Positions 2,203 to 46,830 of a DNA stretch of 64,000 nt are shown here, in pieces. The notes under the pieces are model-generated. The model did not search any database. It was given only the letters and a program-made list of their open reading frames with translations, and had not been told where the DNA came from. Position numbers and translations under genes: made by a program. The stretch is taken from positions 129,338 through 193,337 of the forward strand of contig DBQF01000003.1 of NCBI GenBank assembly GCA_002305115.1, read 5' to 3'. Origin of the DNA: a candidate division WWE3 bacterium UBA1401. GTDB lineage: Bacteria; Patescibacteriota; WWE3; UBA101185; UBA10185. Each line of letters opens with the position of its first letter. Position 1 is the first letter of the stretch.

Positions 2203-2219
2203 GAAAGGTCGGACCTTTC
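2203..2219. repeat. REP-like palindrome GAAAGGTC-G-GACCTTTC (GGTC-N-GACC family)
   Basis: Perfect 8-1-8 inverted repeat in the rsmD/rpmF divergent intergenic region. Confidence 0.8.
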
Positions 2220-15832: not shown

Positions 15833-17881
15833 TTAATCTTCCCAATACACGTTCACCAATAACAAACCAGGCAAAGCTTCTTCGTTAGCTCGGCCAAATT
15901 TGGTTAGTTTGTATAGAACTTGCGGGTCATACTTTACTACTTCGCTGGGGTAATTATTAGAACCCCCCCTGTTACGGTTAAATCTTATTTCACCGTCTGT
16001 AGAAATGAGCTGGCCTTTTACTACCAGAGTACGTTCGTTGGTTGCCCGCGACGCAACATCTATGTGATGGGGTGTTATAACTACAGCATCTATCTGCGAG
16101 GTAAGTGGCGTAGGGTTATCAGTGCCCACATCAGCATCTATAGTAACAGTATCATCTGTTAAATCTATTAACACAAGATAACCTTGGCCAGAATTATTAG
16201 TGAACGCCTTCTTAAACTGGATAGAGCTGTTTGCTTCACCTTTAACAAAAACTACGGCTATGCCGTCACTGGACATAGAGTAGAATTGACGACTGTTTAT
16301 TCTGGTGTTTAAGTCACTAACATCTGCCCAATAAACACCGGGAACAATGTTTTCAAAATCTGTAAGTTGAGTTGCGGGGGAACCAGAGAGTTCAAAATTG
16401 GTAGGCAATAAACTATCGGTAAAATTGCTTACATAGCCGCCGGCACCCGAAGCAACCACCCTGTCTGCACCGGAAACATTCTCAACATCATCAAAACTAC
16501 TTCCAAAAGCAAAAGCACTAAAATTGTCTGTTTGCAGCAAAAAACCGGTAAAGCCACCTAAAGGGGCATCGGGAGTGATTTGGAAAGTAGCAAGCGGATT
16601 GTAAAAATCGCCATCAATAACTGTGTACCAACCGTCTGCCAACACATCCTCCTGGGTATATCCAAAATTAATTGCCAAGTCAGAATTTAATGTGTAGGTG
16701 CTAGTCGGCACAAATAATCCCTGATTACCTCCAGGTTCAAACGCTGTGGAACTAGTACAAACTGAGTTAGTTTCTTTTCCAGAAGCAGAAATATTTGAAA
16801 TTTGGAACCGGTCTATAGAACCTTCTGCAACAGATAACGAAAAAGTACCAGCATCACTTATGGCACCAGAGTCGGTATGAGTAACACCGCAAGCATCGGT
16901 TGAAGTTACTGCTACGGTTTCACTACTTACCCCATCTAAAGATCCAACATCATCACATACAGAACCGCTGGTTCTAAACAGCTTTCCTGAAATGGTGTGT
17001 GTTGCCGGAGAACAGGTGGAAGTATAGCCAAAGTCTACATCCCAATCAGCATTCAAATAATAACCGGAAGAGACATTAAATCTGCCGCCTCCACTATAAC
17101 TAACATTAGGATTGAAGCTGCAAGCAGGTGTCAACGTGTAACCATCTAGTGCTACACCTGAAATAGTGAAATATTGCATTTCCTCATTATCAGGAACATC
17201 GGGAATAGAGTAGTAACCATTAGTGTCAGCATACGCGCTGTAAGTGTTCGAATCGGTTGTAAGAGTGACCAAAGCATTAGCGCTACCATTAAGCGCCACG
17301 GGACTACCTTCTGTGCAAGTGCCACCAGTCTCAAAGATATTCCCTGAAGCTGTGTAATATTGGACTACCGGTGTAAATCTTATAGTGGCAGAGTCATTAC
17401 CATTAAACGGGGCATTGCCATCACAAAAGTAACCAGAAGTGGCAAAGGGATCTCCGTGACACATAGTATAAGCAGGGCTTGTCCAATCTATAATGTCAAT
17501 ATAAACCTGAGCATAATTAGGCGCATAGCCTAACCCAAACCAGTGTCTGTATTCATAATCAAAATGTGAAACACCTCCCGGTACGCTAATACGGGTTAGA
17601 CGAGTAGGCCCACTTAAGATTGTATTACAAGATTGATCTGCACAGACACGTTCGTATACATAAACATAGGTTCCTACTGAAGGGTTAACATCTGCAATAA
17701 TACGAAATTTGATCTCAATATCTTCCGGTACAGTTGTATAAGCATGTAAAGCACCATCCAAGGGATTAACAATCCAGATTTCACCTGTAGGGGGAGCTTG
17801 TGCGTGTGTTTTTGGAGAAAGAAAAATACTACCAGTAAAACACAAAGTCAGTATAAATAAATATCGTAGTCTTCTGGTCAT
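15833..17881 (-). CDS. Secreted adhesin-like protein with two SdrD-B/Cna-B-like modules
   Basis: Signal peptide ..FLSPKTHAQA. Internal duplication: YTASGNIFETGGTC..VDFGYT and HTISGKLFRTSGSVC..INFGYT. C-terminus ..YPSEVVKYDPQVLYKLTKFGRANEEALPGLLLVNVYWED. Confidence 0.6.
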   Translation of the reverse strand: MTRRLRYLFILTLCFTGSIFLSPKTHAQAPPTGEIWIVNPLDGALHAYTTVPEDIEIKFRIIADVNPSVGTYVYVYERVCADQSCNTILSGPTRLTRISVPGGVSHFDYEYRHWFGLGYAPNYAQVYIDIIDWTSPAYTMCHGDPFATSGYFCDGNAPFNGNDSATIRFTPVVQYYTASGNIFETGGTCTEGSPVALNGSANALVTLTTDSNTYSAYADTNGYYSIPDVPDNEEMQYFTISGVALDGYTLTPACSFNPNVSYSGGGRFNVSSGYYLNADWDVDFGYTSTCSPATHTISGKLFRTSGSVCDDVGSLDGVSSETVAVTSTDACGVTHTDSGAISDAGTFSLSVAEGSIDRFQISNISASGKETNSVCTSSTAFEPGGNQGLFVPTSTYTLNSDLAINFGYTQEDVLADGWYTVIDGDFYNPLATFQITPDAPLGGFTGFLLQTDNFSAFAFGSSFDDVENVSGADRVVASGAGGYVSNFTDSLLPTNFELSGSPATQLTDFENIVPGVYWADVSDLNTRINSRQFYSMSSDGIAVVFVKGEANSSIQFKKAFTNNSGQGYLVLIDLTDDTVTIDADVGTDNPTPLTSQIDAVVITPHHIDVASRATNERTLVVKGQLISTDGEIRFNRNRGGSNNYPSEVVKYDPQVLYKLTKFGRANEEALPGLLLVNVYWED

Positions 17882-17887
17882 ATAACG

Positions 17888-18763
17888 TTAAAATATATTC
17901 AAATACCAGTTTAGAATAAATTCACCCGCAAAGAAAGTAATAAAGCTGCCGGTAATCAAAAACGGGCCAAATGGAATAGTATCTTTCATGGACTTCTTTC
18001 CCATAGCTATAAGAAATAAACTATAGACACTTCCCACTAAAAAGCCCAAGAAAATTGCCAGCAAATTATGAGGAAAGCCATTAAACAGCCCGATTAAAAA
18101 ACCCAATTTCACATCGCCATAACCCATGCCTCTACCTTTTGTAATAAAAATAAGAAACAGGAAAAATAAAGAAATAGCTAGAGAAGAAAGTAATAAAGTA
18201 CCGATATTTTTCAAAACAGTTACCAGTTGATCTGTAAAATATCCAACCTGTAACATAAAAACGCCAAACTTGTCATTAGCTAAAAATGAGCGCAAATTTG
18301 TTAGATAATAAGCGTTTACAAATACCAGGTAACCCAAGGTTAACACTACCGCGGGTATGAGCACTTTGTCGGGGATGATTCTATATTTTGCATCTGTAAG
18401 CAAAATAATAATAAACATGCTTGTTATTACCAACAAATATATAAATCGCAGCCACATGGGTAATTGCCAGGTCGGAAAAGTTTCAAACTTTAGATAGTAG
18501 GCAATACCAAAAAAGGCCATGCCTGTGAGAAACTCAGATAGGGGATAGTAGATAGAAAGTTTTTCATTGCAGTATCTGCATCTGCCTTTTAGCAGCCCAA
18601 AAGAAATAATAGGTAATAAATCTTTTATAGAAAGTTTGTGTTTGCAAAAATCACAGTGCGACCTGCCAAATAGAAATGATTCTGAAGAAACAAGCCTATC
18701 GGCAATAAGGTTTATAAATGACCCCGTAAATAAGCCAAAGATGAAAAGGGTTACGTATAGCAT
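17888..18763 (-). CDS. pilD: Prepilin peptidase (A24 family) PilD
   Basis: N-terminal CDFC..CRYC zinc motif, GMGYGDVKL catalytic Asp region, polytopic membrane protein. Confidence 0.9.
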   Translation of the reverse strand: MLYVTLFIFGLFTGSFINLIADRLVSSESFLFGRSHCDFCKHKLSIKDLLPIISFGLLKGRCRYCNEKLSIYYPLSEFLTGMAFFGIAYYLKFETFPTWQLPMWLRFIYLLVITSMFIIILLTDAKYRIIPDKVLIPAVVLTLGYLVFVNAYYLTNLRSFLANDKFGVFMLQVGYFTDQLVTVLKNIGTLLLSSLAISLFFLFLIFITKGRGMGYGDVKLGFLIGLFNGFPHNLLAIFLGFLVGSVYSLFLIAMGKKSMKDTIPFGPFLITGSFITFFAGEFILNWYLNIF

Positions 18764-18799
18764 AGTTAAATGATAGCAGATAGGGAAGGTAACTTCTAA

Positions 18800-18825
18800 C
18801 CCGCCTTCGTCAAGACTTCGGCGGG
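18800..18825 (-). terminator. Hairpin CCCGCC-loop-GGCGGG downstream of pilin 18860..19366
   Basis: 6-bp GC stem flanked by inverted GTTAG-type heptads (18788..18800 and 18845..18857). An A-run at 18838-18843 gives a T-run on the minus strand, upstream of the stem. Confidence 0.4.
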
Positions 18826-18859
18826 CAGGCTTCTAGCAAAAAATGTCAGTGGTTAACAA

Positions 18860-19366
18860 TCACGGGCTAATAATAGTCAACGAGGTACCAACCTCATAAG
18901 CAGTATCTGAATCACCACCATCTGTGGTCATCTTCGTAGCATTATCAGGAGACTCTAAAACAGCATTCAACTCATAATTTGTGCCATTAGACGCATACGA
19001 ATAAACATTAGATCCAGTATTGAGCGGATCATACGGCAACGCTGCAAGATACTTCGTTAAACCGGTCTTGCCAACTATAGTAGTATAAGAAATCCAACCG
19101 TTACCGCTGGCAGATTGGGAATTAGCCTCACCGCTATTTCCTATAGTAGGAGCATCTACAGTTCCGGATAGTGCAATTTCACCATCGGCCAGCGCTAATG
19201 CGATAGCCTTATTCAATGTATCAATGTCTTCCATACGCTTAGCATCCCTACCTTTGGCAAGCAAAGCCGCGGGATTTATTGCTACAATCAAAACTCCTGC
19301 CAGAATAGAAATAATGGCGATTACTACTACAAGTTCTATAAGTGTAAAGCCTCTTTGTTTAGACAT
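18860..19366 (-). CDS. Type IV pilin (second major-pilin candidate)
   Basis: MSKQRG/FTLIELVVVIAIISILAG. Sits directly after pilC and is followed by a hairpin element. Confidence 0.85.
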   Translation of the reverse strand: MSKQRGFTLIELVVVIAIISILAGVLIVAINPAALLAKGRDAKRMEDIDTLNKAIALALADGEIALSGTVDAPTIGNSGEANSQSASGNGWISYTTIVGKTGLTKYLAALPYDPLNTGSNVYSYASNGTNYELNAVLESPDNATKMTTDGGDSDTAYEVGTSLTIISP

Positions 19367-19394
19367 AAGTATAGTTACCTCACTAATACCTGCT

Positions 19395-20597
19395 TTAAAT
19401 TGCAGAAGTAATTTTATAAATAGGTGTGATTATGGAAACTATTAAGACACCAACCATACCACCAAGCATAACTAAAATAACAGGCTCAAGAGCGGAAGAC
19501 AACCCTTTGATAGAGTTACTGGTCTCGCCATCAAAAAAGTCTGCCACTCTATCTAGTACTTCATCCATCTGTCCAGTTTCTTCACCCACACTTGCCATTT
19601 GGCCAAACAGCGGGGGAAAATTTTTATCATTCCTGAAATATTCTGCCAGTGAATTACCTTTCTCTACTGAACGTGCGGCAGCTAGCGCGGCGTTTTTATA
19701 CTCCATATTTTGCATAATTTGCGAAATGATATTAAGAGCTTCCACAATAGGAATAGCAGCTGAAATAAGCAGGCTTAAGGTACGCGCAAACGTGGTTATT
19801 TCTTTCTCACGGTTAATCTTCCCAAAAATAGGTACACCAAATAACAAAGAATTAGTCAGTGTCTTACCTTCAGTAGTAGACATAAACCATTTCATAAATA
19901 CAAACAAACCTGCTACAACAAGTACCACAATTAGTGTGTGTTTGGTAAATAACTCTGAGATGCTAATCATAGCCTGAGTAGCGGCCGGAAGTTCTACATC
20001 CAAGCTTTCATACATAGAAGCAAGTTTGGGAATAACAAAAACCATAAGGAGCACAAATACACCAACCATAGCCAGTAAAACAATTGCTGGGTAAATCATA
20101 GCACTTTTAAGGCGAGATTTGAGCTCTCTATCAGCTTCCATCGTTGCCGCAAGCCGTTGTAAAATCTCATCAAGCCGTCCGCTGGCCTCACCCGCCCTAA
20201 CTAAAGCTCTATAAGTAGGGGAAAACACACTGTCGTGCCTACCCATCGCCTGTGAAAGCGATGAACCCCCTTCCACATCCCGCAATACATCCATAATCAC
20301 TTTGCGGAACTTCGCATTAGTGGTCTGATCTGCCAACACTTCTAACGCGCGGGAAATAGGCAACCCCGCGGAAATCATAGTGGAGAACTGCCGGGTAAAT
20401 GTTACAATTTCCGTACCCGAAATACCTCTTATTTCCAACAGAGAATCTAGAAAAGAAGTCCGCTTCTGCTCCAGACTTACTACAAATAAGCCCTGGTTTT
20501 TCAGCAGTTCAACTGCCAGACCCTCACTTTTAGCATCAACCGTGCCTACGCGCCGTCCACCCGATTTATCTTTTGCAGTATACGAATATAAAGCCAT
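19395..20597 (-). CDS. pilC: Type IV pilus platform protein PilC (GspF family)
   Basis: 400 aa with a duplicated T2SSF architecture and three TM segments. Lies in pilB-pilT-pilC order. Confidence 0.9.
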   Translation of the reverse strand: MALYSYTAKDKSGGRRVGTVDAKSEGLAVELLKNQGLFVVSLEQKRTSFLDSLLEIRGISGTEIVTFTRQFSTMISAGLPISRALEVLADQTTNAKFRKVIMDVLRDVEGGSSLSQAMGRHDSVFSPTYRALVRAGEASGRLDEILQRLAATMEADRELKSRLKSAMIYPAIVLLAMVGVFVLLMVFVIPKLASMYESLDVELPAATQAMISISELFTKHTLIVVLVVAGLFVFMKWFMSTTEGKTLTNSLLFGVPIFGKINREKEITTFARTLSLLISAAIPIVEALNIISQIMQNMEYKNAALAAARSVEKGNSLAEYFRNDKNFPPLFGQMASVGEETGQMDEVLDRVADFFDGETSNSIKGLSSALEPVILVMLGGMVGVLIVSIITPIYKITSAI

Positions 20598-20598
20598 A

Positions 20599-21666
20599 TT
20601 ACTTTAACAACCTTCTAAACTCATCCGGCTTAAGGGCAAACTTGATAGCTTCTGCTTCATCTACTTTATTATCTACTACAAGTTGCGCCAAGCTACGTTC
20701 AAGGGAAACCATACCCAAATTGGAGCTTGTGTTAATTATATTGTCCAAATGCTGGGTTTTACCTTCTCTAATTAGATTTTTCACAGCTTCGCTGGCCAAC
20801 ATAATTTCCACTGCGGGTAATACACTCCCGTCTTTGGCGGGTACTAACCTTAATGACAAAACAACTTCCAAAATTTGGGCTAACTGCAACTGAATTTCCG
20901 CACGCCTGCCTTCCGGGAAAGTGCCAATAATTCTTTCCATGGTTTGCGAGGCTGAATTAGTGTGCAGCGTAGCCAAAACTAAATGTCCGGTTTCAGCAAC
21001 ATTCAACGCGGCGGCCATTGTCTCATAGTCGCGCATTTCTCCAAGCATCACCACGTTCGGATCTTGCCTGAGTACAGCCCGTAGGGCCAGATCCCATGAA
21101 GAGGTATCCGTGTGCATTTCCCTTTGCTCAATAAGAGACTTTTTGTTCGTAAAAATAAATTCAATAGGATCTTCTATTGTAATAATGTGTTCAGCTCTCA
21201 ATTCATTTATACGATCTAAAATTGATGCCACAGTTGTAGTTTTACCATGGCCGGTGGGTCCCACTACCAATACCAAGCCTTGCCTCAATTCGCATAAAGA
21301 AGAAATTATGGGTGGCATATTAAGCTGATCAAGTGTGGGGATAACCATAGGAACATGTCTTAACGATACGGACGGATAGCCTTTTTGATAAAAAGCGTTT
21401 ACCCTAAAGCGTGCCTTAGTGCCAAGTGCAACAGAAAAATCAAGCTCTCTATTCACATCAAAGATGTCTTTCTGCTCTGGTTCCAATACTTGAGATAAAA
21501 AGGCTTCAATGTCTTCTACAGTTAGAGAACTGTAATCTGACAATGTACTAAGCTGTCTGTTAATGCGCACAACAGGAGGAACTCCTACAGTTAAGTGTAA
21601 ATCCGAGGCGTCAAGTGAAACTACTCGTTCTAAAATACCTGTTACATTAAAATTTGCATTACTCAT
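20599..21666 (-). CDS. pilT: Twitching-motility retraction ATPase PilT
   Basis: 355 aa. Walker A GPTGHGKTTT, Asp box, Walker B VVMLGEMRD, His box ATLHTNSA. Has no N-terminal T2SSE_N domain and no zinc motif. Confidence 0.9.
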   Translation of the reverse strand: MSNANFNVTGILERVVSLDASDLHLTVGVPPVVRINRQLSTLSDYSSLTVEDIEAFLSQVLEPEQKDIFDVNRELDFSVALGTKARFRVNAFYQKGYPSVSLRHVPMVIPTLDQLNMPPIISSLCELRQGLVLVVGPTGHGKTTTVASILDRINELRAEHIITIEDPIEFIFTNKKSLIEQREMHTDTSSWDLALRAVLRQDPNVVMLGEMRDYETMAAALNVAETGHLVLATLHTNSASQTMERIIGTFPEGRRAEIQLQLAQILEVVLSLRLVPAKDGSVLPAVEIMLASEAVKNLIREGKTQHLDNIINTSSNLGMVSLERSLAQLVVDNKVDEAEAIKFALKPDEFRRLLK

Positions 21667-23420
21667 TTTGCTACCCTCAAAACTTCTTCCAAAGTTGTGG
21701 CACCCTCAAGCACACGTAAGGCACCATCTTGTAATAAGGTTAACATACCTTCTTGCACTGCGACAGACTGAATTTGGTCGGCAGTGCCCCTTTCAATAAC
21801 TAAGTGCGACACGTCATTGCTCATTTCTAATACTTCAAAAATGCCAACTCTGCCCTTATAACCGGTGCCACCACAGTGGTCACATCCTTTGCCCTTATAT
21901 AGCTTTGTAATGCCTTCTTTCATTTTCTTAATAGACTCAGCTATAGTGGGATCTTTTTCGATAATAATTTTCGAACCGGCCACTGGCTCAAGAATCTTTC
22001 TAATATCTTCCTTAACTTCTTCCGGAGGAGCATATTCTTCCTTACACTCGTTACAAACTCTTCTGACAAGTCTTTGGGCCACTATGGCGTTAACTGTAGA
22101 AGCAAGCAAGAAACTTTCAACTCCCATGTCCAAGAGCCTGGGTAAAGCACCCGACGCAGAGTTTGTATGAAGCGTGGACAGTACCAAGTGGCCAGTTAGG
22201 GCGGCATGAATAGCGAGCTCCGCGGTTTCATTATCACGAATTTCGCCGACCATGATGATGTTGGGATCTTGCCTTAGGAAAGAGCGTAAGCCTGTGGCAA
22301 ATGTAAGACCGGCTTGGGGATTTACCTGCACTTGGTTTATTCCTGGAATTCTAATTTCAACCGGATCTTCGAGTGTAGAAATGTTTACTCTAATAGTATT
22401 AAGCTTACTTAAGGCCGAGGCCAAAGTAACAGTTTTGCCTGAACCTGTAGGCCCTGTAACTAAGATCATACCTGTAGGCTTTAAGATAGATTCTTCTAAC
22501 CGGCGTAACGATAATCCGCGCAGCCCCAAATCTTTAAACGAAAATACTGCACCTTCCTCTTTCAAAAGCCTGATCACTACTTTTTCTCCATTTACTGTTG
22601 GAAGTGTAGACACACGTAAATCTGTAGTAGTTTTGCCCACCAATACTTTGAACCGACCATCTAATGGTAACCTTTTCTCGTCAATCTTCATTTTCGCTAG
22701 AATTTTGATTCTTGCAACAATGGAATCATGCATCTCTTTTGGAAGAGTGCGCTTTTCTTCTAACACACCATCTATACGATATCTAAGCCTGGTCTTATCT
22801 TCGAAGGGTTCTATATGAATATCGGATGCGCCTACTTTTACAGCAGTCTCCAAAATCATACCCACAATACGGGCGATAGGCGCGTCGCGCAAAGTAGCGT
22901 CAGAGATTTCCTCAGCGTTTTCTTCTATTTTTAAGGTAGTTTGGTTAATCTCTTCCAAGGCTGCTGTAATTTCCTCACCAATAGCTTTACCTTGCATATC
23001 TTCAATAACATGCTGAATACTACTTGGCGTGCTAACAAAAGGAATAACTCTATAGCCAGACTTTTTTTCTACAAACTCAATGGTAGGAAGATCAAGCGGG
23101 TCAATCATAGCCAGGGAAAGTTTGCTATCTTCCAGGGAAAAGGGGACTATGTTTAGCTTCTTCGCGATATTAATAGGAACAATATCCAACAGGGAAGGGT
23201 CTACTTTAACAGTTGCCAGATCTATAAAATCAATGCCATAGGATTCACCATAGGCTTTAACAAGTTCTTCTTCGCTCACGTAACCGCGTTCCTGGATTAT
23301 TTCACGTTCGGGTTTACCTGTATTGACGTGCTCAAATTTGATAGCAGAAAGTTGATCCGCAGTAATGAGGTTTTTTTCGTATAGAACTTCTTCAATTGAT
23401 TTTTTGCCAAGGGCTGTCAT
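21663..23420 (-). CDS. pilB: Type IV pilus extension ATPase PilB (GspE family)
   Basis: 585 aa. N-terminal T2SSE_N-like repeats, Walker A GPTGSGKT, STLHTNSA, and a tetracysteine motif CNEC...CDHC. Confidence 0.92.
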   Translation of the reverse strand: MTALGKKSIEEVLYEKNLITADQLSAIKFEHVNTGKPEREIIQERGYVSEEELVKAYGESYGIDFIDLATVKVDPSLLDIVPINIAKKLNIVPFSLEDSKLSLAMIDPLDLPTIEFVEKKSGYRVIPFVSTPSSIQHVIEDMQGKAIGEEITAALEEINQTTLKIEENAEEISDATLRDAPIARIVGMILETAVKVGASDIHIEPFEDKTRLRYRIDGVLEEKRTLPKEMHDSIVARIKILAKMKIDEKRLPLDGRFKVLVGKTTTDLRVSTLPTVNGEKVVIRLLKEEGAVFSFKDLGLRGLSLRRLEESILKPTGMILVTGPTGSGKTVTLASALSKLNTIRVNISTLEDPVEIRIPGINQVQVNPQAGLTFATGLRSFLRQDPNIIMVGEIRDNETAELAIHAALTGHLVLSTLHTNSASGALPRLLDMGVESFLLASTVNAIVAQRLVRRVCNECKEEYAPPEEVKEDIRKILEPVAGSKIIIEKDPTIAESIKKMKEGITKLYKGKGCDHCGGTGYKGRVGIFEVLEMSNDVSHLVIERGTADQIQSVAVQEGMLTLLQDGALRVLEGATTLEEVLRVAK

Positions 23421-23481
23421 AGGGCAGGATTAATTTACTAGGGAAATGATAGCAGTATGGGGGGAAGTTGGCAATGTAAGG

Positions 23482-23494
23482 AGGGTCGGACCTT
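23482..23494. repeat. REP-like palindrome AGGGTC-G-GACCTT
   Basis: GGTC-N-GACC core in the pilB/holB divergent intergenic region. Confidence 0.7.
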
Positions 23495-23634
23495 TCCGGC
23501 AAGAGCGCATAATGTGTACTCCTCATTGCTCTCTATGTCTCTAGCAGACAAACATTAGTTACTTTAGCTATGAGATACGATTGGAAAAGGTAGCATCTTA
23601 AAACTAATAGTCTGTGATTGTGAGTAATTCTCCG

Positions 23635-23647
23635 AGGGTCCGACCTT
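23635..23647. repeat. REP-like palindrome AGGGTC-C-GACCTT
   Basis: Same flanks (GAGGGTC.GACCTTTCCGG) as the 23482 copy, with the central base flipped. Confidence 0.7.
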
Positions 23648-23690
23648 TCCGGATAATATTCTATGACAGTTGTGTAGATTTTTGGTTTGG

Positions 23691-23703
23691 AAGGTCTGAC
23701 CCT
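23691..23703. repeat. REP-like palindrome AAGGTC-T-GACCCT
   Basis: Followed by GATTAA, as is the copy at 32164. Confidence 0.7.
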
Positions 23704-23726
23704 GATTAAGGGATTAGAATCACGTA

Positions 23727-23753
23727 GATAGTTCCGAGTGGAAAGGAACTATC
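23727..23753 (+). promoter_or_regulatory. 9-bp perfect hairpin GATAGTTCC-loop-GGAACTATC in the holB leader
   Basis: Read directly from the sequence, ~75 nt upstream of the holB ATG. Function unknown. Confidence 0.3.
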
Positions 23754-23828
23754 TGAATGCCAGATCAGACTTTACGCTAGCTTTAGTAACTTGTGTTTTA
23801 AACACCTTCCAACTATCATAACCTCACC

Positions 23829-24467
23829 ATGCATGGAGCAATACTAATATATGGGGCAAACCAACAAACAAGACTGGAAAAACTAGATGAACTTACCCCA
23901 AGAGTCAAACCAGTAGACTTCCTAGAAATAAAGCCCTCGGAAGACAAGCCAAGCATTGGCATCGAACAAGTTCGAGAAATGATAGCTTTTGTTCACGAAA
24001 AACCACTGGAGTCAAAAAACAAACTAGTAACCATATTGAAAGCGCACACTTTGACCATTCCAGCCCAAAATGCACTGCTAAAAACACTCGAAGAACCACC
24101 AACCTACGCAATAATTATACTAGAAGCCAAAAATGAACAGACCCTTCTGCCAACAGTAGTTTCTCGCTGCCAAAGAATACAGCTGCATATGAATATATCT
24201 ACAGAGAAAACAACCGAAGAGTTGGCAATCATACTTAAAATGACTCACGGCGAAAGGCTGGACTGGGTAACAGACAAAGAAAATCAGAGTAGGGAAGGAA
24301 TAGTCGCAATTTTTGATAGCTGGATTAATGAGGAAAGAAGTAGACTCCCGGATAGAGACGCAGTAGCAAATATTGAGTTAATTAGTAGAGTGAAAGAGGA
24401 TGTTGAAAGCACTAATGTGAATTTGAAGCTGGCGCTGGAGTTTTTGGTACTGGGACTAGGGGAATAG
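23829..24467 (+). CDS. holB: DNA polymerase III delta-prime-like clamp-loader subunit
   Basis: 212 aa. NALLKTLEEPP and VVSRCQRIQL (SRC) motifs. No intact Walker A. Confidence 0.7.
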   Translation: MHGAILIYGANQQTRLEKLDELTPRVKPVDFLEIKPSEDKPSIGIEQVREMIAFVHEKPLESKNKLVTILKAHTLTIPAQNALLKTLEEPPTYAIIILEAKNEQTLLPTVVSRCQRIQLHMNISTEKTTEELAIILKMTHGERLDWVTDKENQSREGIVAIFDSWINEERSRLPDRDAVANIELISRVKEDVESTNVNLKLALEFLVLGLGE

Positions 24468-24470
24468 GCA

Positions 24471-24491
24471 AAGAAAGGTCCGACCTTTCTT
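24471..24491. repeat. REP-like palindrome, perfect 10-1-10 AAGAAAGGTC-C-GACCTTTCTT
   Basis: Lies 4 nt after the holB stop and 80 nt upstream of the RAYT-like gene. Confidence 0.85.
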
Positions 24492-24506
24492 AGCTGTTAT
24501 CTCATC

Positions 24507-24529
24507 ATATTCTAGTTAAACTAGAATAT
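24507..24529. repeat. Perfect 23-bp palindrome ATATTCTAGTT-A-AACTAGAATAT
   Basis: 11-1-11 inverted repeat. 21 of its 23 nt recur (reverse-complemented) at 55087..55105. Confidence 0.8.
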
Positions 24530-24570
24530 ACCTCCTTGAAAAATACAATTTACGTTGTAATTTTATACCC

Positions 24571-25155
24571 ATGCCAAGAAAGCATGTTGTTAAAGAATAC
24601 GAAGCAGGTGGGATTTACCACATTCACAATCTATGCATTTGCGGAGCACAAATTCTGTATGTAGAAGAGGATTACGAGTACTTGATGTATCTACTAGAGG
24701 AAGCCCTAACGGAAAACCCAAGCACTAAAGCTAAAGCGCCCAAAAACTTCCACAGCAGAATTGACATTTTTTGCTTTATTTTGCAGAACAACCATTGGCA
24801 TTTTGAAATAAAGCAAAACGATAAAACAGCCATGGCAGAGTTCATGCAAAGTTTAACTATCAGGTTCACTATGAAGATGAACAAAAAATATAAAAGATCT
24901 GGGCCTCTTTTCCATTCCAGGTATCAGGCACGTAAAATCGAGTCAGTAGAAGACGCCATTAATGTTTCAAAGTACATACATTTAAATCCAACTCATGGGG
25001 AAGACCTACGAAAGGACCTTACTTATCCATATTCTAGCGTAACCAGTTATCTTTCAGAGAAACAGAAAGGTCCAACCTTCCTGGACACAAATCACATACT
25101 AGAGCTGTTTGATTTTGATAGGCATAGATACCTGAAATTCCTTATGGAAAGATAA
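24571..25155 (+). CDS. REP-associated tyrosine transposase-like protein (IS200/Y1 HUH transposase superfamily, COG1943-type)
   Basis: GGIYHIHN, EEDYEYLMYLLEE, HUH motif NNHWHFEI, SGPLFHSRYQARKI, and the catalytic-Tyr helix KYIHLNP..YPYSS. Flanked by REP-like palindromes on both sides. Confidence 0.8.
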   Translation: MPRKHVVKEYEAGGIYHIHNLCICGAQILYVEEDYEYLMYLLEEALTENPSTKAKAPKNFHSRIDIFCFILQNNHWHFEIKQNDKTAMAEFMQSLTIRFTMKMNKKYKRSGPLFHSRYQARKIESVEDAINVSKYIHLNPTHGEDLRKDLTYPYSSVTSYLSEKQKGPTFLDTNHILELFDFDRHRYLKFLMER

Positions 25156-25166
25156 GGTCCGACCCT
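25154..25166. repeat. REP-like palindrome AAGGTC-C-GACCCT
   Basis: Overlaps the TAA stop of the RAYT-like gene. Confidence 0.7.
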
Positions 25167-25249
25167 CCCACGCGCCCCGAATCAAGCCCGAAACTCCATG
25201 ACATTCGTTGCTTGAAAATAACAAGGCAATCCATTACAATGTTTCAGTT

Positions 25250-27235
25250 ATGGCAAATCCCGCACAAAACAAGCGATATTCTGACTACACAGCTGAGGAT
25301 ATTCAAGTACTCGAAGGCTTAGAACCGGTAAGAAAACGTCCCGGCATGTATATAGGCTCCACTGGGGTAGAAGGGTTACAACACCTGGTTACTGAAATTG
25401 TAAACAACTCCATGGATGAAGCTATTGCCGGCTATGCTGATCATATCAGAGTGGAGTTTTTTGAAGACGGCTCCGTAGCTATTTATGACAACGGCCGTGG
25501 ATGTCCCTATGAAATGAAAGAGGGTTACGGCGTAAGCGCGCTAGAACTTGCGTATGCCAGACTCCACGCAGGTGGAAAGTTTGGTGGCAAGGGATATAAA
25601 GTATCCAGTGGTTTGCACGGTGTGGGTGCCAGCGTTGTTAACGCCCTTTCTGAGTGGTGCCGAGTTGTAGTCAGAAGAGGGGATGATTTAGTAATTCAGG
25701 AATACCAGAATGGCGGAAACGTGGTCAGACCGGTTGAATCGCTAGATGTTAAAAATCCCACAAAACTAAAGGATGCCAAATGGGGTATTGATTTAGACAA
25801 CTGGAAATATGAATCCGGAACAATTGCACACTTTAAACCAGATGGCACTATTTTTGAAACTACAGATTTTCCTCTGAAATTTTTCATCAGCCAACTCAGG
25901 GAATATGCGTACCTAACTGCAGGCATAAAGTTCGAACTTATAGATCACAGATCAAATGATCACTTCAATTTTTACTTTGAGGGAGGCGTTAAGACGTTTC
26001 TTAAGGATCTAAACAGAAACAAGGCTCCGGTCAACGAAAATGTGTTTCACGTAAGAAAAACTGAAGACGAAGTGGAAGTAGAAGTAGCCATGCAGTATAA
26101 CGATTCCTATTCAGAAAACATTCTCTGTTTTGCTAACCACATCAAAAACAGTGAGGGCGGTACACATTCCACAGGCTTTAGATCTGCCTTAACTAGAACT
26201 GTAAACGATTACGCGAGGAACAATAATTTGCTCAAAGACAAAGACCCTAACCTTACAAGCGACGACTTGAGAGAAGGCTTAACAGCAATAATTTCCGTTA
26301 AACTAGATTCTGCCGCTTTACAATTTGAAGGCCAGACAAAGGCTAAACTTGGCAACTCCAATGTTAGAACCGTAGTAGAAAGCGTAGTAAAAGATGCCCT
26401 AACAACCTTTTTTGAAGAACACCCTAAAGACGCACAAGCAATAATTGAGAAAAACATTTTGTCATTTAAGGCCAGAATGGCTGCTAAAGCCGCTAGAGAC
26501 ACCGTTATAAGAAAAAGCGCCTTAGAAGGTGGGGGCGTATTGCCAGGTAAATTAGCAGATTGTTCGGAAAAAGATAATACTAAAACGGAACTTTTTATAG
26601 TTGAGGGAGATTCTGCAGGCGGTACTGCAAAACAGGCTAGAGATAGTAAAATTCAAGCTATTCTTCCGCTGTTTGGAAAGGTTTTGAACACAGAACGCGC
26701 GAGGCTGGACAAAATAGTAGATTCCGATAAGTTCAAACCACTAATTATTGCTATAGGAGCAGGCATTGGTGAGCAATACACCCCAAAAAGGCTAAGGTAC
26801 AGTAAACTGATTATCATGGCAGATGCGGATTCGGATGGTATGCATATTATGACCCTATACTTAACCTTCTTTTATAGACACATGACAGAACTTGTTAATA
26901 ACGGCCATATTTATGTGGCTGTGCCGCCACTATTCAAGGCAACCTGGGGCAAGAATAAGAAATACCTGTTTGACGAAAAAGAGCGAAATGATTTCCTAAA
27001 AACTGCAGATGGCAAAAAAGCAATAATTCAGAGATTTAAAGGATTAGGCGAAATGAATGCCGAAGAACTCTGGGAAACAACTATGAACCCCCAGACCAGG
27101 CGCTTAAAGCTAATTAGCGTGGAAGACGCTGCACAAGCCGATGAGGTGTTTTCCAAACTAATGGGAAGCGAAGTGGCGCCGAGGAAAAGATTTATTCAGA
27201 CTAACGCCAAACAGGCAGTCTTAGACGTAACATGA
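25250..27235 (+). CDS. gyrB: DNA gyrase subunit B
   Basis: ORF 25208..27235 begins at a TTG. The conserved N-terminus starts at the ATG at 25250 (MANPAQNKRYSDYTAEDIQVLEGLEPVRKRPGMYIGS). GHKL ATPase, Toprim EGDSAGG, PLFGKVLN. Confidence 0.97.
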   Translation: MANPAQNKRYSDYTAEDIQVLEGLEPVRKRPGMYIGSTGVEGLQHLVTEIVNNSMDEAIAGYADHIRVEFFEDGSVAIYDNGRGCPYEMKEGYGVSALELAYARLHAGGKFGGKGYKVSSGLHGVGASVVNALSEWCRVVVRRGDDLVIQEYQNGGNVVRPVESLDVKNPTKLKDAKWGIDLDNWKYESGTIAHFKPDGTIFETTDFPLKFFISQLREYAYLTAGIKFELIDHRSNDHFNFYFEGGVKTFLKDLNRNKAPVNENVFHVRKTEDEVEVEVAMQYNDSYSENILCFANHIKNSEGGTHSTGFRSALTRTVNDYARNNNLLKDKDPNLTSDDLREGLTAIISVKLDSAALQFEGQTKAKLGNSNVRTVVESVVKDALTTFFEEHPKDAQAIIEKNILSFKARMAAKAARDTVIRKSALEGGGVLPGKLADCSEKDNTKTELFIVEGDSAGGTAKQARDSKIQAILPLFGKVLNTERARLDKIVDSDKFKPLIIAIGAGIGEQYTPKRLRYSKLIIMADADSDGMHIMTLYLTFFYRHMTELVNNGHIYVAVPPLFKATWGKNKKYLFDEKERNDFLKTADGKKAIIQRFKGLGEMNAEELWETTMNPQTRRLKLISVEDAAQADEVFSKLMGSEVAPRKRFIQTNAKQAVLDVT

Positions 27236-28179: not shown

Positions 28180-30750
28180 ATGGCTGAAGAAATAACTGCA
28201 CTAACAACTGAAGATAACGAAAACTTACCAGAGGGCATTATAAAAGCCAATATCACTGATGAAATGGAAAAAGCGTACTTGGATTACGCCATGAGTGTTA
28301 TTGTTTCCCGAGCACTTCCGGACGTTAAGGATGGCTTAAAACCTGTTCAAAGAAGAATAATCTATGCTATGCAAGACCAGGGTATGACTGCTTCCGGAAA
28401 GTTTAACAAGTGTGCTGCGGTTATTGGCGAAGTACTCAAGAAATACCACCCGCATGGTGATACATCGGTTTATGATGCACTGGTGAGAATGGCGCAAGAC
28501 TTTTCCATGCGATATCCAGTCATTACGCCTCAAGGTAACTTTGGAAACATCGATGGCGATGCTCCGGCAGCCATGAGATACACCGAATGTAAATTGGCAC
28601 CTATTGCTGAAGAACTCTATAGAGATATAGACAAAGAGACAGTAGATTTTGAAATAAATGACTTGCAGAACGAAGAACCCGTATACTTGCCTTCATTATT
28701 ACCCAATCTACTGCTAAATGGCGGTGTTGGTATTGCAGTGGGGATGGCAACAAACATTCCGCCACATAATTTAGTGGAAGTAATAGACGGCATCAACGTA
28801 CTAATAGAAAAAGCAGACAACATTGGTAAAGCTCCGGCTAAAGATAGTGAAAACCAAGTGACACAAGTAGATTTTTCTTCGGAAGCTACTGTGGAAGACC
28901 TCGTGGAACACATTAAAGGACCGGACTTTCCAACCGGAGGCATTATTTACGACAGAAAAGAAATTTTACAGATGTACGCTACCGGCAAAGGCAGGGTTGT
29001 GACCAGAGCAAAAGTAGATATTGAAGAAACTAAGGGCAAGACCAGAATCGTAGTCACAGAAATTCCGTATCAGGTAAATAAATCTACACTGGTAGCAAAA
29101 ATCGCAGATGCCATAAGGTCAAAAAGAATAGAAGGTGTATCCGATCTTAGAGATGAATCAAGCCGCGGTGGTATTCGGATAGTTATTGAACTTAAAAAAG
29201 AAGCTATTCCCAAAAAAGTAGAGAATGCACTATATAAATATACTCAATTGCAAGACACATTTAATGGCAATATGGTGGCTTTAGTAAACGGCGAGCCTAA
29301 GCTACTAACACTAAAAACAATATTGGAAGAGTTTGTAAAGCACAGACAAAATGTAGTAGTCAAAAGAACCATTTATTTACTCAGAAAAGCCAAAGAACGC
29401 GAACATATCTTGCAAGGACTAAAAATAGCTTTGGACAACCTGGACGCGGTAATAAAACTTATTAGGAACAGTCCGGATGCCGATAAAGCTAAAGAAGGGC
29501 TGGTGAAACAGTTTGGCCTTTCCGAAATACAAGCACAAGCCATTTTAGATATGCAGCTTAGAAGATTGGCAGCATTGGAGAGGCAAAAGATAGAAGATGA
29601 GCTAAAAGAGATTATTGCCACTATTAAAGATTTCGAAGGCATACTAGCTTCGCCTGTGCACATTATAGAAATAGTCCAAAAAGAGCTCTCGGAGCTTAAA
29701 ACAAAGTTTGGGGACGAAAGAAAAACTAAAGTAGTAAAAGGCAAGGTAGGGGAAATATCGGAAGAAGATTTAGTTGTTAATGAGCCATGCATTGTTACTA
29801 TTTCGCACAGTGGCTATATAAAGAGGCTAAAAGACGATACCTACAAAACGCAAGCCCGCGGAGGAAAGGGCGTTAAGGGACAAGAACTCAAGGATGAGGA
29901 CACTATTGCCTCTATCAGGACCTGTAATACACATGACTATGCATTTTTCTTTACTAATACAGGAAAGGTGTATAAACTGCGTATCTGGGAAATTCCAGAG
30001 TCTTCACGAACTGCCAAAGGTACAGCTCTGGTTAATTTCCTAAACATCAGTCAAGATGAAGCAGTACAGGCTTTTTTGACCATGCCCGCCGAAGCACTGG
30101 TAAATGCAGATGGCTACATTATGCTGGGCACTAACCAGGGCTTTGTTAAAAAAACACCATTGGCAGATTTTGAGAATATCAGGTCTTCGGGCATTATGGC
30201 TATTTACCTTTCCGACGGTGACAATCTGGCCTGGGCCAGAGAAACTACAGGCAATAGTGAGGTACTCATAACAACTTCTTTGGGCCAGTCAATCAGATTC
30301 AAAGAAACCGAAGTCAGACCAATGGGCAGAAATGCCAGGGGTGTCAGGGGGATTAAGCTGCAAAGCGATGACTATGTTGTTGGAATGGTCATTATTCCCA
30401 AAGATGAAAAAGAGTACGACTTGGTAGTAGTTTCGAAAAATGGTTATGGCAAGAAAACAGGTTTGGATGAGTACAAAACGCAGGGTAGAGGAGGCAGCGG
30501 TATTAGAACATATAGTAAGAGGTCTATTGGCAAAACAGGGAAGTTGATCAGCGCGCAGATTCAAAAAAAGTCGGAAGACAATGATATGCTGATTGCCACT
30601 TCAAGCGGCCAGATAATTAGAATTTGCACCGATGAAATTCCAAGGCAAGGCAGAGATACGCTTGGGGTAAGGTTGATTAGATTGAATAAGGGTGATGAAG
30701 CAACGTCTGTGGCGCTGTTGGAAGAAAATCCAGAGGTTGTGGAAAAGTAG
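28180..30750 (+). CDS. gyrA: DNA gyrase subunit A
   Basis: LPDVKDGLKPVQRRIIYAM, catalytic AAMRYTE, GyrA-box-type beta-pinwheel repeats at the C-terminus. Confidence 0.97.
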   Translation: MAEEITALTTEDNENLPEGIIKANITDEMEKAYLDYAMSVIVSRALPDVKDGLKPVQRRIIYAMQDQGMTASGKFNKCAAVIGEVLKKYHPHGDTSVYDALVRMAQDFSMRYPVITPQGNFGNIDGDAPAAMRYTECKLAPIAEELYRDIDKETVDFEINDLQNEEPVYLPSLLPNLLLNGGVGIAVGMATNIPPHNLVEVIDGINVLIEKADNIGKAPAKDSENQVTQVDFSSEATVEDLVEHIKGPDFPTGGIIYDRKEILQMYATGKGRVVTRAKVDIEETKGKTRIVVTEIPYQVNKSTLVAKIADAIRSKRIEGVSDLRDESSRGGIRIVIELKKEAIPKKVENALYKYTQLQDTFNGNMVALVNGEPKLLTLKTILEEFVKHRQNVVVKRTIYLLRKAKEREHILQGLKIALDNLDAVIKLIRNSPDADKAKEGLVKQFGLSEIQAQAILDMQLRRLAALERQKIEDELKEIIATIKDFEGILASPVHIIEIVQKELSELKTKFGDERKTKVVKGKVGEISEEDLVVNEPCIVTISHSGYIKRLKDDTYKTQARGGKGVKGQELKDEDTIASIRTCNTHDYAFFFTNTGKVYKLRIWEIPESSRTAKGTALVNFLNISQDEAVQAFLTMPAEALVNADGYIMLGTNQGFVKKTPLADFENIRSSGIMAIYLSDGDNLAWARETTGNSEVLITTSLGQSIRFKETEVRPMGRNARGVRGIKLQSDDYVVGMVIIPKDEKEYDLVVVSKNGYGKKTGLDEYKTQGRGGSGIRTYSKRSIGKTGKLISAQIQKKSEDNDMLIATSSGQIIRICTDEIPRQGRDTLGVRLIRLNKGDEATSVALLEENPEVVEK

Positions 30751-30755
30751 AAGGG

Positions 30756-30770
30756 AAGGGTCCGACCCTT
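30756..30770. repeat. REP-like palindrome AAGGGTC-C-GACCCTT followed by ATTTTAT
   Basis: Perfect 7-1-7, 6 nt after the gyrA stop. A T-rich trailer makes it terminator-like. Confidence 0.8.
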
Positions 30771-30881
30771 ATTTTATACCGTTACAAGGGAATTCCTGAC
30801 AGAAATCCAAGCGTATTTTCTCCAACGCGAGAACAATTACTATGAAATTTGTACCTCAAATTGCGTAAAAACAACCCAGGA

Positions 30882-30898
30882 GAAAGGTCCGACCTTTC
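30882..30898. repeat. REP-like palindrome GAAAGGTC-C-GACCTTTC
   Basis: Perfect 8-1-8. Confidence 0.8.
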
Positions 30899-31133
30899 CT
30901 TCTAACGGCCGAAACGAATCTGGTGTCACCTGGAACAATCAAAATCAAACAAGCAACAATCGCTGCTATGGCTATAGCAGTCCAGGCAATACCAATGTTG
31001 CCAAACCAACGGTTGTATCTGCAGGTAGAACGAACAAGAGCAAGTATGCTTGACCTAAACCTCCTTTCTTGTACCTGTAGAAGGCGGAATATTCGGCTTA
31101 GCGTAATCACTTTCTAGAGCACCTATACACAAG

Positions 31134-31166
31134 AAAAAGAGAGGTTGCTTCGGCACTTCTCTTTTT
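31134..31166. terminator. Long A/T-framed hairpin AAAAAGAGAGGTTGC-TTCG-GCACTTCTCTTTTT
   Basis: Stem of ~14 bp with one bulge and a TTCG tetraloop. T-runs on both strands make it look bidirectional. Confidence 0.45.
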
Positions 31167-31187
31167 CCCTCCATTTCCAACATAAGC

Positions 31188-31193
31188 TATAAT
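31188..31193 (+). promoter_or_regulatory. Candidate -10 box within the duplicated 12-mer ATAAGCTATAAT
   Basis: Consensus TATAAT ~50 nt upstream of ORF 31244. The same 12-mer recurs at 31704..31715. Confidence 0.4.
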
Positions 31194-31243
31194 ATCCCCA
31201 TAGCCCACACACTGGGTGTGGAGAATGAATGGAGGGATCATCA

Positions 31244-31618
31244 ATGCAGGTAATAAAAATCCTTGAACAGACGGGGAAGGGACATCTAGTCATATGCGTT
31301 TTTGCTGTTTCTAAGCAGAGTGACATTGCCGCCACAAAAGTAGCTATTGACGTCGCTTTGGATAGTTGGGAACGTCCACAACAATACCAAGAGGTGTCTA
31401 TTATCATAGAAGCATCTGACCTTGCTGCGGAAGCACTTAGACACTCAATCAACAGCTCCCTACACCTTAGGAAAAAACTCCGCAGTATATTACTTGTAGG
31501 GAGTCCAACACAAATCACGGCTACAGTCGAGAAGCTACAGGGATATGCAGACGAGCGTACAGGGAGATACATACCAGTAGTCTCAGCCATCGAGAGACTC
31601 CCAATAATCGCTGAGTAA
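31244..31618 (+). CDS. Hypothetical protein (124 aa)
   Basis: ORF 31229..31618. GGAGGG RBS precedes the ATG at 31244. The + strand translation looks balanced and protein-like (MQVIKILEQTGKGHLVICVFAV...), whereas the antisense ORF 31123..31623 is Cys/Ser-rich. No motif recognised. Confidence 0.4.
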   Translation: MQVIKILEQTGKGHLVICVFAVSKQSDIAATKVAIDVALDSWERPQQYQEVSIIIEASDLAAEALRHSINSSLHLRKKLRSILLVGSPTQITATVEKLQGYADERTGRYIPVVSAIERLPIIAE

Positions 31619-31649
31619 CCCATCGTAATACTAGGACAGGGGTGATGTC

Positions 31650-31662
31650 AAGGTCTGACCTT
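31650..31662. repeat. REP-like palindrome AAGGTC-T-GACCTT
   Basis: Perfect 6-1-6 between the two hypothetical ORFs. Confidence 0.75.
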
Positions 31663-31709
31663 ACACCACCTCTGTCACCCCAAACAATCCCTAGAATCCC
31701 CATATAAGC

Positions 31710-31715
31710 TATAAT
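31710..31715 (+). promoter_or_regulatory. Candidate -10 box within the second copy of ATAAGCTATAAT
   Basis: TATAAT ~50 nt upstream of ORF 31768. The adjacent ATCCCCATA 9-mer is also shared with the first copy. Confidence 0.4.
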
Positions 31716-31767
31716 CAATAACAGAGTACCCGCCGCCAAATACGCGGCTAGAAAGGCGTGAGAAAGA

Positions 31768-32176: not shown

Positions 32177-32182
32177 GATTTA

Positions 32183-44514: not shown

Positions 44515-44527
44515 AAGGTCGGACCTT
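44515..44527. repeat. REP-like palindrome AAGGTC-G-GACCTT
   Basis: Perfect 6-1-6, 46 nt upstream of tRNA-Leu. Its ~45-nt right flank resembles that of the copy at 23635. Confidence 0.8.
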
Positions 44528-46813: not shown

Positions 46814-46830
46814 GGAAGGTCAGACCTTCC
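46814..46830. repeat. REP-like palindrome GGAAGGTC-A-GACCTTCC
   Basis: Perfect 8-1-8. Confidence 0.85.

Follow-up and report, generated by a model that had tools for sequence, protein, structure and literature searches.

A Y1 (HUH) transposase gene bracketed by a short, dispersed palindrome in a candidate division WWE3 bacterium

The transposase gene and the palindromes at the locus

We analyzed a stretch of 64,000 nucleotides (nt) from the candidate division WWE3 bacterium UBA1401 (GenBank assembly GCA_002305115.1, contig DBQF01000003.1, positions 129,338 to 193,337 of the forward strand), hereafter called the window, and focused on a transposase gene (24571..25155, plus strand) and the short GGTC-N-GACC palindromes that accompany it. 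The gene starts with ATG and encodes a protein of 194 amino acids (aa). It is located between holB (23829-24467, Pfam DNA_pol3_delta2) and gyrB (approximately 25250-27235), the latter being followed by a DHH phosphoesterase gene and then gyrA, with a long type IV pilus cluster on the opposite strand upstream of the transposase locus. The spacers that flank the transposase gene are 103 and 52 nt long; no tnpB gene was found beside it, the neighbors being housekeeping genes.

The initial annotation, made from the letters and translations of this stretch, had recognized in the open reading frame (ORF) 24571..25155 the strings diagnostic of REP-associated tyrosine transposases (RAYTs; REP, repetitive extragenic palindromic sequence) and IS200-like Y1 enzymes, and all of these, i.e., GGIYHIHN, EEDYEYL, HWH, GPLFHSRYQARKI, KYIHLNP, and YPYSS, were confirmed. 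The protein also passed the Y1/HUH profile search proposed as a check, since Pfam PF01797 (Y1_Tnp) matched residues 62-137 with a score of 31.5 bits against a cut-off of 23; no second Pfam domain was detected in the protein at E ≤ 1, and the protein stops approximately 55 aa past the tyrosine motif. The HUH motif corresponds to H75-W-H77 and the tyrosine motif to Y135-IHL-N139-P140, with residues H17, D34, H75, H77, Q82, G111, Y135-I-H-L-N-P140, S155, and S156 invariant in an alignment of 26 sequences (alignment A1).

The fold agrees with this assignment. An AlphaFold (AF2) model of the protein had a predicted local distance difference test score (pLDDT) of 90.1 and a predicted template modeling score (pTM) of 0.86, with the HUH motif on strand E75-82 and Tyr135 ending helix H126-137. 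When the model was compared by Foldseek to PDB structures, the top match was 4ER8, the Escherichia coli TnpA-REP bound to a REP hairpin (E = 1e-6, template modeling scores of 0.55/0.63), at a sequence identity of 14%, followed by ISDra2, IS608, and IS200 transposases; the matches 4ER8, 2XM3, 2A6M, 2VJV, 2F4F, and 2EC2 had a probability of 1.00 each. A PDB search with the window protein as a single sequence returned noise only, so a family profile was needed, and this profile matched 2XM3 (ISDra2 TnpA) with E = 3e-4 and 4ER8 with E = 0.016. By the published criterion, in which class 2 is marked by Y-x3-N-P and class 1/IS200 by Y-x3-Q (PMC6006769), the window gene is a Y1 (HUH) tyrosine transposase of class 2, that is, of the RAYT/TIRYT type (TIRYT, the tyrosine transposase associated with terminal inverted repeats [TIRs]).

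The protein family comprises 8448 clusters at 50% identity (E ≤ 1e-3), in which the best non-self identity of the window protein is 44%. The closer named homologues are "transposase" proteins of approximately 205 aa from Saccharibacteria and Patescibacteria, and, together with synteny that matches metagenome-assembled genomes (MAGs) of Patescibacteria, they bear out the earlier suggestion that the host is a member of the candidate phyla radiation (CPR). A tblastn search with 26 family members against the window revealed one gene copy and no second copy or remnant, so that the many identical copies expected of an ordinary IS200 were not seen; the exact product is recorded on two contigs, and the one returned has the same holB-gene-gyrB neighbors.

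As previously noted, a perfect 10-1-10 palindrome (AAGAAAGGTC C GACCTTTCTT; 24471..24491, with palindromes given here without strand unless stated) is present upstream of the gene, beginning 4 nt past the holB stop codon and ending 79 nt ahead of the ATG. As single-stranded DNA (ssDNA), it folds with −8.7 kcal/mol (z = −4.0), and its 18-mer AGAAAGGTCCGACCTTTC (from 24472) is found in identical form at 30881-30898. Downstream, a copy at 25154..25166 (TAA-GGTCCGACC-CT) abuts the stop codon and shares 11 nt (AAGGTCCGACC) with the upstream copy, with AA supplied by the TAA stop; the claim that a further copy overlaps the stop codon thus stands as to sequence, but the copy is weaker than the claim implied and is a relic, not a second full copy. 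A degenerate copy that the initial annotation had missed lies within the gene (25063..25083, plus strand; CAGAAAGGTCCAACCTTCCTG) and is read in frame as QKGPTFL (residues 165-171), with GAAAGGTCCAACCTTCC giving KGPTF; it falls in the stretch of the model in which the block-mean pLDDT dips to 84 (residues 161-170). In an intrinsic-terminator test of 23400-25300, no terminator-like match corresponded to the upstream or the stop-codon copy, and palindromes were touched by three matches, a minus-strand pair at the internal copy and a single one that overlaps an arm of the copy at 23637.

Another palindrome, 11-1-11 in form (ATATTCTAGTT A AACTAGAATAT; 24507..24529, at −62), lies upstream of the gene and folds as ssDNA with −6.3 kcal/mol (z −7). 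It is an instance of ATTCTA-N7-TAGAAT, an element also detected upstream of homologues at loci L089 (−64; 3175-3193), L082 (−38; 897-915), L084 (−123 and −62, with coordinates 9878-9896 given for one of them), and L085 (−161 and −83; 341-359 and 419-437), with a weaker version in L087 at −114, against a background of 84 matches per 1.2 Mb. A near-identical copy is present in the window at 55087-55105, in the rpsF-ychF spacer. Because the element is kept between genomes, whereas the bracketing repeat is not, it is probably the promoter or operator of the gene and not a copy of the dispersed repeat.

Dispersal in the window and co-variation among relatives

The palindrome is strongly over-represented in the window. 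The motif GGTCNGACC occurs 15 times in the 64 kb against 0.37 expected (approximately 40-fold), and none of 100 shuffles reached 15; likewise, AGGTCNGACCT with at most one mismatch was found 13 times against 1.19 expected, and GGT-N3-ACC with at least two further pairs 13 times against 0.87. The enrichment presumed by the initial annotation was therefore borne out for the window, whereas its count of at least 15 more copies was slightly generous: besides the two flanking cores, there are 13 exact cores, one of them probably due to chance, plus one-mismatch variants at 25069 (in the ORF), 55486, and 55620. On a cleaned gene map, 16 copies of the family occupy 10 of 29 spacers within approximately 5.4 kb of intergenic DNA, and just two cores lie in genes, namely the in-frame copy of the transposase gene and a core in gyrB at 25723, which has no flanking arms and is probably a chance occurrence. 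Another 8.4 kb of this genome, outside the window at its start, contained two more copies, both in one divergent spacer.

The consensus of the repeat is RRARGGTC-N-GACCYTYY, 13-21 nt long with a unit of approximately 18 nt, and its center may be any base. A search for a larger repeat unit surrounding the palindromes found none, nor was there any conserved flank beyond approximately 18 nt. Most copies differ among themselves, and several mix AAGG and AGGG arms, which results in G:T on one strand. With respect to gene orientation, the palindrome is carried by 4 of the 5 divergent spacers and by none of the 3 convergent ones, a preference that may just mark where a compact genome has room.

These properties bear on whether the palindrome is instead a host signal unrelated to the transposase, for example a global regulator's operator, a terminator, or a sequence of the uptake type, that flanks the gene on both sides by coincidence. 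Perfect symmetry around a free central base would suit a dimeric binder of double-stranded DNA, the occurrence in divergent spacers is unlike that of classical REPs, which lie mainly downstream of genes (PMC3733652), and the window encodes a type IV pilus or competence-like apparatus. From the density in spacers, we estimated the chance of finding a copy in both of the small flanking spacers at approximately 0.04, so the window, taken alone, is only suggestive of a link between gene and repeat. As a terminator, on the other hand, the palindrome is a poor candidate, with most copies lacking a T-tail.

The link was examined in a comparative sample of 80 loci encoding relatives plus nine more around the closest proteins, with flank sharing assessed for 75 homologous genes from other genomes and 938 control genes taken from these loci. 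A stretch of at least 11 nt was common to both flanks of 57 of the 75 homologues (76%), compared to 40 of 938 controls (4%), and one of at least 13 nt to those of 52 of 75 homologues, compared to 11 of 938 controls. The repeat in these relatives is usually placed approximately 20-65 nt ahead of the ATG and 0-15 nt past or over the stop codon; it is mostly a hairpin, and its sequence varies by genome. When the proteins were arranged in a neighbor-joining tree, the repeat types followed the protein clades, examples being AAGG(T/G)-loop-(A/C)CCTT, CACC(C/T)-loop-(G/A)GGTG, and the cyanobacterial GAAACC-N-GGTTTC. The window protein clustered with those of L083 (44% identity) and L087 (39%), both of which have GGTC-N-GACC repeats, present in L083 as GGGTCAGACC doublets upstream and within the 3' end of the ORF and in L087 as six AGGGTC-N-GACCCT copies in 6 kb. 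Since all three share it, GGTC-N-GACC is the repeat cognate to this clade of proteins. Paralogues in one genome (four loci, L028, L032, L055, and L063) bear different repeats. The most useful by-product of the comparison is that this protein branch is generally bracketed by co-varying hairpins.

Inverted two-hairpin doublets flank the gene in L004 (917-950 and 1612-1645) and in L083 (9966-9992 and 10628-10656), as exemplified by ACAAGGTTCGACCTTG-TG-CAAGGTCGAACCTTGT, so that a REPIN-like unit stands on each side of the gene.

Altogether, the comparative data render a host signal very unlikely as the source of the palindromes. In related genomes, palindromes of this kind are restricted to the flanks and interior of the homologous gene, with none elsewhere in 20 kb, which argues against a general signal of Patescibacteria; the repeat type tracks the protein clade; and the positions of both the degenerate copy within the ORF and the stop-codon copy recur in relatives.

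In-frame internal copies of the gene's own flanking repeat were detected at 11 of the 41 loci with a palindromic flank repeat (defined by a core of 10 specified bases). By our tally, there were 14 such copies in approximately 27 kb of gene sequence and, with L029 and the window excluded, approximately 15 in approximately 650 kb outside. Their sites are the linker that precedes the HUH strand, two loops that follow YIHLNP and the SS motif, respectively (the window copy being in the latter), and the C terminus, where the ORFs of L083, L085, and L087 extend into the repeat downstream of them at the position corresponding to that in the window, that of L087 also in the same frame. Because in-frame insertions of REPs within tnpA-REP genes are known for subclass 2.4 (PMC6006769), the in-frame copies described here extend a known finding and are not a new phenomenon. 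In L087, the palindrome AGGGTCGGACCCT (1950-1962; gene nt 319-331) lies within the codons of the conserved G-R-V-G-P-L-F (GGT AGG GTC GGA CCC TTA TTT); codon choice or conversion, rather than insertion, gave rise to this copy.

The genomic position of the gene is partly conserved. It adjoins holB in the window, L063, and L086, and in L089 (42% identity) it occupies the holB-gyrB slot but is inverted with respect to both neighbors (L089 1098-4493 compared to window 23829-27235), an arrangement that fits either an inversion between the flanking self-complementary repeats or an independent insertion; placement next to holB or between holB and gyrB thus persists at 33-42% identity. Other slots are topA/rpsB (L084 and L087), def-fmt (L083), and efp-dnaB (L082). 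The last of these, the locus of the second-closest homologue, has a block of efp, tRNA, dnaB, and MBL-fold genes (295-3724) that is syntenic with 43747-46656 of the window, and the transposase gene lies there between efp and the tRNA gene. The same slot in the window has no gene; it is a 271-nt spacer between efp and tRNA-Leu with one solo GGTC palindrome (44515..44527; AAGGTC G GACCTT).

The varying slots, together with the two paralogues at four loci, are what one might expect if the unit were an ordinary autonomous IS200-like insertion sequence (IS) that transposes as a whole, with the flanking hairpins as its left and right ends. The window gene indeed resembles IS200/IS605 TnpA (subclass 1.1, including IS608 and ISDra2) in its HUH/Y1 fold, its catalytic residues, and its position between hairpins, and the profile searches slightly favored ISDra2 TnpA over 4ER8. 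Yet its motifs are NHxH and Y-x3-N-P, not the DH[VI]H and Y-x3-Q of IS200 (PMC6006769, Table 1), and it lacks the tnpB that often accompanies IS200/IS605, is present in the window as a single divergent copy without fragments, and carries an extra C-terminal tail of approximately 60 aa. Moreover, the gene was assembled within contigs of 105-194 kb, the paralogues have different flanking repeats, the slot beside holB has been kept despite the sequence divergence given above, and the repeat is dispersed on its own, without the gene. An autonomous IS is accordingly a highly improbable explanation.

Classification and interpretation of the system

Judged by its motifs, the window protein would be a short relative of TnpA-Y1 subclass 2.1 that lacks a helix-turn-helix (HTH) domain; this subclass corresponds to Bertels group 1 and to the TIRYTs of Di Nocera et al., as set out by Quentin et al. 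in 2018 (PMC6006769). Motifs of the family are mostly NH[FYIV]H (NHFH being the commonest), LFQ, and YIHLNP, those of the window protein itself being NHWH, LFH, and YIHLNP, and subclass 2.1 is similarly characterized by NH[YF]H, (L)FQ, Y[IV]HLNP, an "SS" tail, and a W...ILELF stretch. A low copy number, the window having one copy, would be another common trait. The nearest relatives outside the CPR are proteins of 320-335 aa, several of them with Bac_DnaA_C in addition to Y1_Tnp, that have the N-terminal 180 aa in common with the family; PF08299 was found in the longer relatives P0081, P0085, and P0091. The described members of subclass 2.1 have a C-terminal HTH (DnaA_C, HTH_23, or HTH_28), whereas the window protein has none.

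Similarly, the TIRtrons resemble the window unit in that a genome-specific inverted or self-complementary repeat flanks the gene and at times overlaps its 3' end; Di Nocera et al. in 2013 described genes flanked by TIRs, some of them self-complementary, with dispersed families in some genomes only (PMC3733652), a pattern that recurs here. TIRtrons have long TIRs with a GGGGWSAS motif, in contrast to the short perfect hairpins of the window. According to Quentin et al., subclass 2.1 has no REP-like sequences (PMC6006769), whereas 76% of the genes in our sample are bracketed.

The best structural match is E. coli TnpA-REP (RayT/YafM, 4ER8), which belongs to the REP/REPIN-RAYT systems (subclasses 2.2 and 2.5; Bertels groups 2 and 3). 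These canonical systems share with the window Y-x3-NP and a single gene whose own repeat both brackets it and is dispersed intergenically, and REPIN-like arrangements occur here in the window doublet 32164-32197 and in the gene-flanking doublets of L004 and L083. Several features set the window apart from them: the HUH motif is NHWH, compared to DHLH in canonical RAYTs, and the repeat is a perfect palindrome of 13-21 nt with a 1-nt center, without a bulge or GT[AG]G guide, and with many copies in divergent promoter spacers. Since both the NF047646 cut-off is missed and the GT[AG]G foot is absent, the window protein is not a canonical RAYT of the GTAG-REP type. The RAYT-like identity proposed in the initial annotation thus holds at the level of a class 2 Y1/HUH enzyme but not in the canonical sense.

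Subclass 2.4 (Bertels group 4, from Cyanobacteria and Bacteroidetes) resembles the window protein in its median length of 194 aa and in carrying in-frame REP copies within the tnpA-REP gene, described as its "unique feature" (PMC6006769). It differs in having YIxNNP with WQ, compared to YIHLNP with FQ/FH here, and long GTAG "double-foot" REPs, unlike the repeats here. Insertions in subclass 2.4 are mainly between HUH and Y, whereas those in the present family lie before HUH, after Y, after SS, and at the C terminus, and one internal copy in L087 coincides with the conserved RVGP motif, which is also unlike subclass 2.4.

Taken together, the data point to a REPtron/TIRtron, i.e., a Y1 HUH gene of the RAYT/TIRYT type, present once and inherited vertically, and its cognate short hairpin repeat in a chromosome of Patescibacteria, to which we assign a probability of roughly 0.75. 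We favor it because the repeat flanks the gene, is over-represented and extragenic, and co-varies with the enzyme; the REP/RAYT-type arrangement suggested by the initial annotation is supported in that members of the family are, as a rule, bracketed by a repeat specific to their genome. The unit is a further instance of a known REPtron/TIRtron arrangement in a little-studied phylum. The initial statement that such arrangements are characterized mainly in Proteobacteria needs to be broadened, as REPtron-type arrangements have already been described in Cyanobacteria and Bacteroidetes (PMC6006769).

In such a system, by homology to E. coli TnpA-REP and to the TnpA proteins of IS608 and ISDra2, the protein would bind the repeat as a hairpin on ssDNA, and the HUH-bound metal and Tyr135 would cut and rejoin the DNA beside the hairpin. 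Cutting and rejoining might then have spread the repeat, preferentially in cis, into the spacers of the genome and also into permissive loops of the transposase gene itself.

Several observations weigh against a REPtron/TIRtron. At the protein level, NCBIfam NF047646 (the REP_Tyr_transpos equivalog) was the best NCBIfam match but scored 35.6 bits, below its cut-off of 80, and three near-invariant family sites are altered, with L21 in place of R, Q72 in place of M, and F99 in place of Y. At the locus, the stop-codon copy is palindromic only over its 9-nt core GGTCCGACC (25156-25164) and scarcely folds (−0.6 kcal/mol), and the two flanking copies have the chance probability estimated above. As for the repeat, no GT[AG]G foot or guide was found beside the stem among 17 oriented copies, its symmetry would equally suit a dimeric DNA binder, and the coverage of the genome amounts to 72 kb in total. 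Among relatives, the repeat was found elsewhere in approximately 20 kb at only 14 of 57 loci and is mostly confined to the gene, which indicates that dispersal is not a general property of the family; dispersed families occur in the window genome, L087, L071, and some cyanobacteria. Finally, mobilization of the repeat by the window protein is something we infer.

The same observations bear on the possibility that the link between gene and repeat is real but the system is now immobile, with the enzyme co-opted for another ssDNA task or decaying among fossil copies. The window protein is the most divergent of the family, its HWH is unusual in addition to the substitutions listed above, the downstream and internal copies are degenerate and most others differ mutually, and the function of RAYTs is unsettled in the literature (PMC5581495). 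Nevertheless, all catalytic and invariant residues are intact in a full-length ORF, and the two identical 18-mers and several perfect palindromes of 7-10 bp argue for recent copying or for selection. We therefore consider present immobility quite unlikely.

A more far-reaching proposal, which we put forward tentatively and regard as rather unlikely, is that Patescibacteria harbor an old, largely vertical, HTH-less 2.1-like branch that is REP-associated, in which the hairpin has time and again been written into the enzyme's own ORF (in loops, at the C terminus, and, in L087, across the RVGP motif through codon choice), with the conserved ATTCTA-N7-TAGAAT operator beside the gene; the protein would then be a co-opted ssDNA endonuclease of minimal genomes with self-targeting in cis or autoregulation by the hairpin, as opposed to an agent of simple selfish spread. 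If true, a REP-associated 2.1-like branch would run counter to the published statement that subclass 2.1 has no REP.

REP/RAYT systems have mostly been worked out in Proteobacteria, and the same logic of a gene and its cognate hairpin appears here in an ultra-small CPR genome. Patescibacteria are unmentioned in the text of Quentin et al. (PMC6006769), no description of REP-type repeats in the CPR was found in the literature searched, and in the one paper found to name both the CPR and REP-associated tyrosine transposases the term is a KEGG label only. The REPtron/TIRtron would extend the host range and repeat repertoire of such systems to a 2.1-like branch scored as REP-free by the main survey and to a very short, GTAG-less palindrome, and with a 194-aa enzyme and an 18-nt hairpin it offers a compact test case for ssDNA binding and cleavage. 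For annotation, it means that such genes in Patescibacteria MAGs should not be tallied as ordinary IS transposases, and that palindromes account for many "empty" spacers.

Individual palindrome copies and other features of the window

Apart from the copies at the transposase gene and in the efp-tRNA-Leu spacer, the dispersed palindromes are distributed as follows. One lies at 2203..2219 (GAAAGGTC G GACCTTTC) in the spacer from which nusB and the gene at 1622-2176 (Pfam Cons_hypoth95) diverge, and another at 46814..46830 (GGAAGGTC A GACCTTCC) in the divergent spacer between an MBL-fold gene and an EamA gene. The divergent pilB/holB spacer holds three copies (23481-23499, 23634-23652, and 23691-23703), whose A/G arm differences give G:T pairs on one strand. 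Two follow gyrA, at 30756-30770 (AAGGGTC C GACCCTT, 5 nt past the stop codon) and 30882-30898 (GAAAGGTC C GACCTTTC), and a further copy is located at 31650..31662 (AAGGTC T GACCTT). Upstream of rnhB, AGGGTC G GACCCT (32164-32176) and AAAGGTC A GACCTTT (32183-32197) form the tight REPIN-like doublet mentioned above. The 637-nt rpsF-ychF spacer (55018-55654) contains three copies, i.e., a core at 55153-55161, GGAAGGGTCCAACCTTTC at 55482-55499, and AGGGTCGAACCCT at 55618-55630.

The two longest of these settings were inspected for other content. The 1.5-kb gyrA-rnhB stretch (30751-32244), with its five palindrome copies, contains only small ORFs (31229-31618 and 31768-32112), which have no Pfam match. 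The rpsF-ychF spacer also holds the ATTCTAG palindrome, and a candidate 54-aa ORF in it (55113-55277), likewise without a Pfam match, reads through one palindrome core. An Rfam search of the whole window at the gathering threshold returned one tRNA only, and a search of the spacers 30700-32300 and 54900-55700 at E ≤ 1 returned none, save two implausible weak matches in 30751-32244; the long spacers are therefore not known noncoding RNA genes.

Within the window, GGGACC(G/A)TCC cores are confined to the efp-tRNA spacer, where they occur at 44343-44353, 44406-44416, and approximately 44471-44481, some 64 nt apart, and one of them forms the 7-1-7 palindrome TGGGGAC-C-GTCCCCA. A tandem array of the three was tested and rejected; the cores may be a relic of another repeat family.

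The type IV pilus cluster (5107-23420) encodes a PilB-like T2SSE ATPase with an MshEN domain, a second T2SSE ATPase, a T2SSF platform protein, and PilM/N/O. It also includes at least seven pilin-like genes, and the largest direct-repeat families of the window are made up of their N-terminal coding segments. On the minus strand, 58254-63380 encodes a bacterial alpha-2-macroglobulin of 1708 aa with a Hint/PT-HINT domain (approximately residues 840-967) that separates the bait region from the A2M domain and looks like an intein-type insertion. Lastly, strong G+C-rich hairpins unrelated to GGTC were observed between convergent genes at 49535-49554 and 49583-49602 (two 9-bp stems, CCGCAGGCT / CCCGAGGCT) and between pilin genes at 12143-12170 (an 11-bp stem, TACTCCCCCCT...AGGGGGGAGTA); these are probably terminators.

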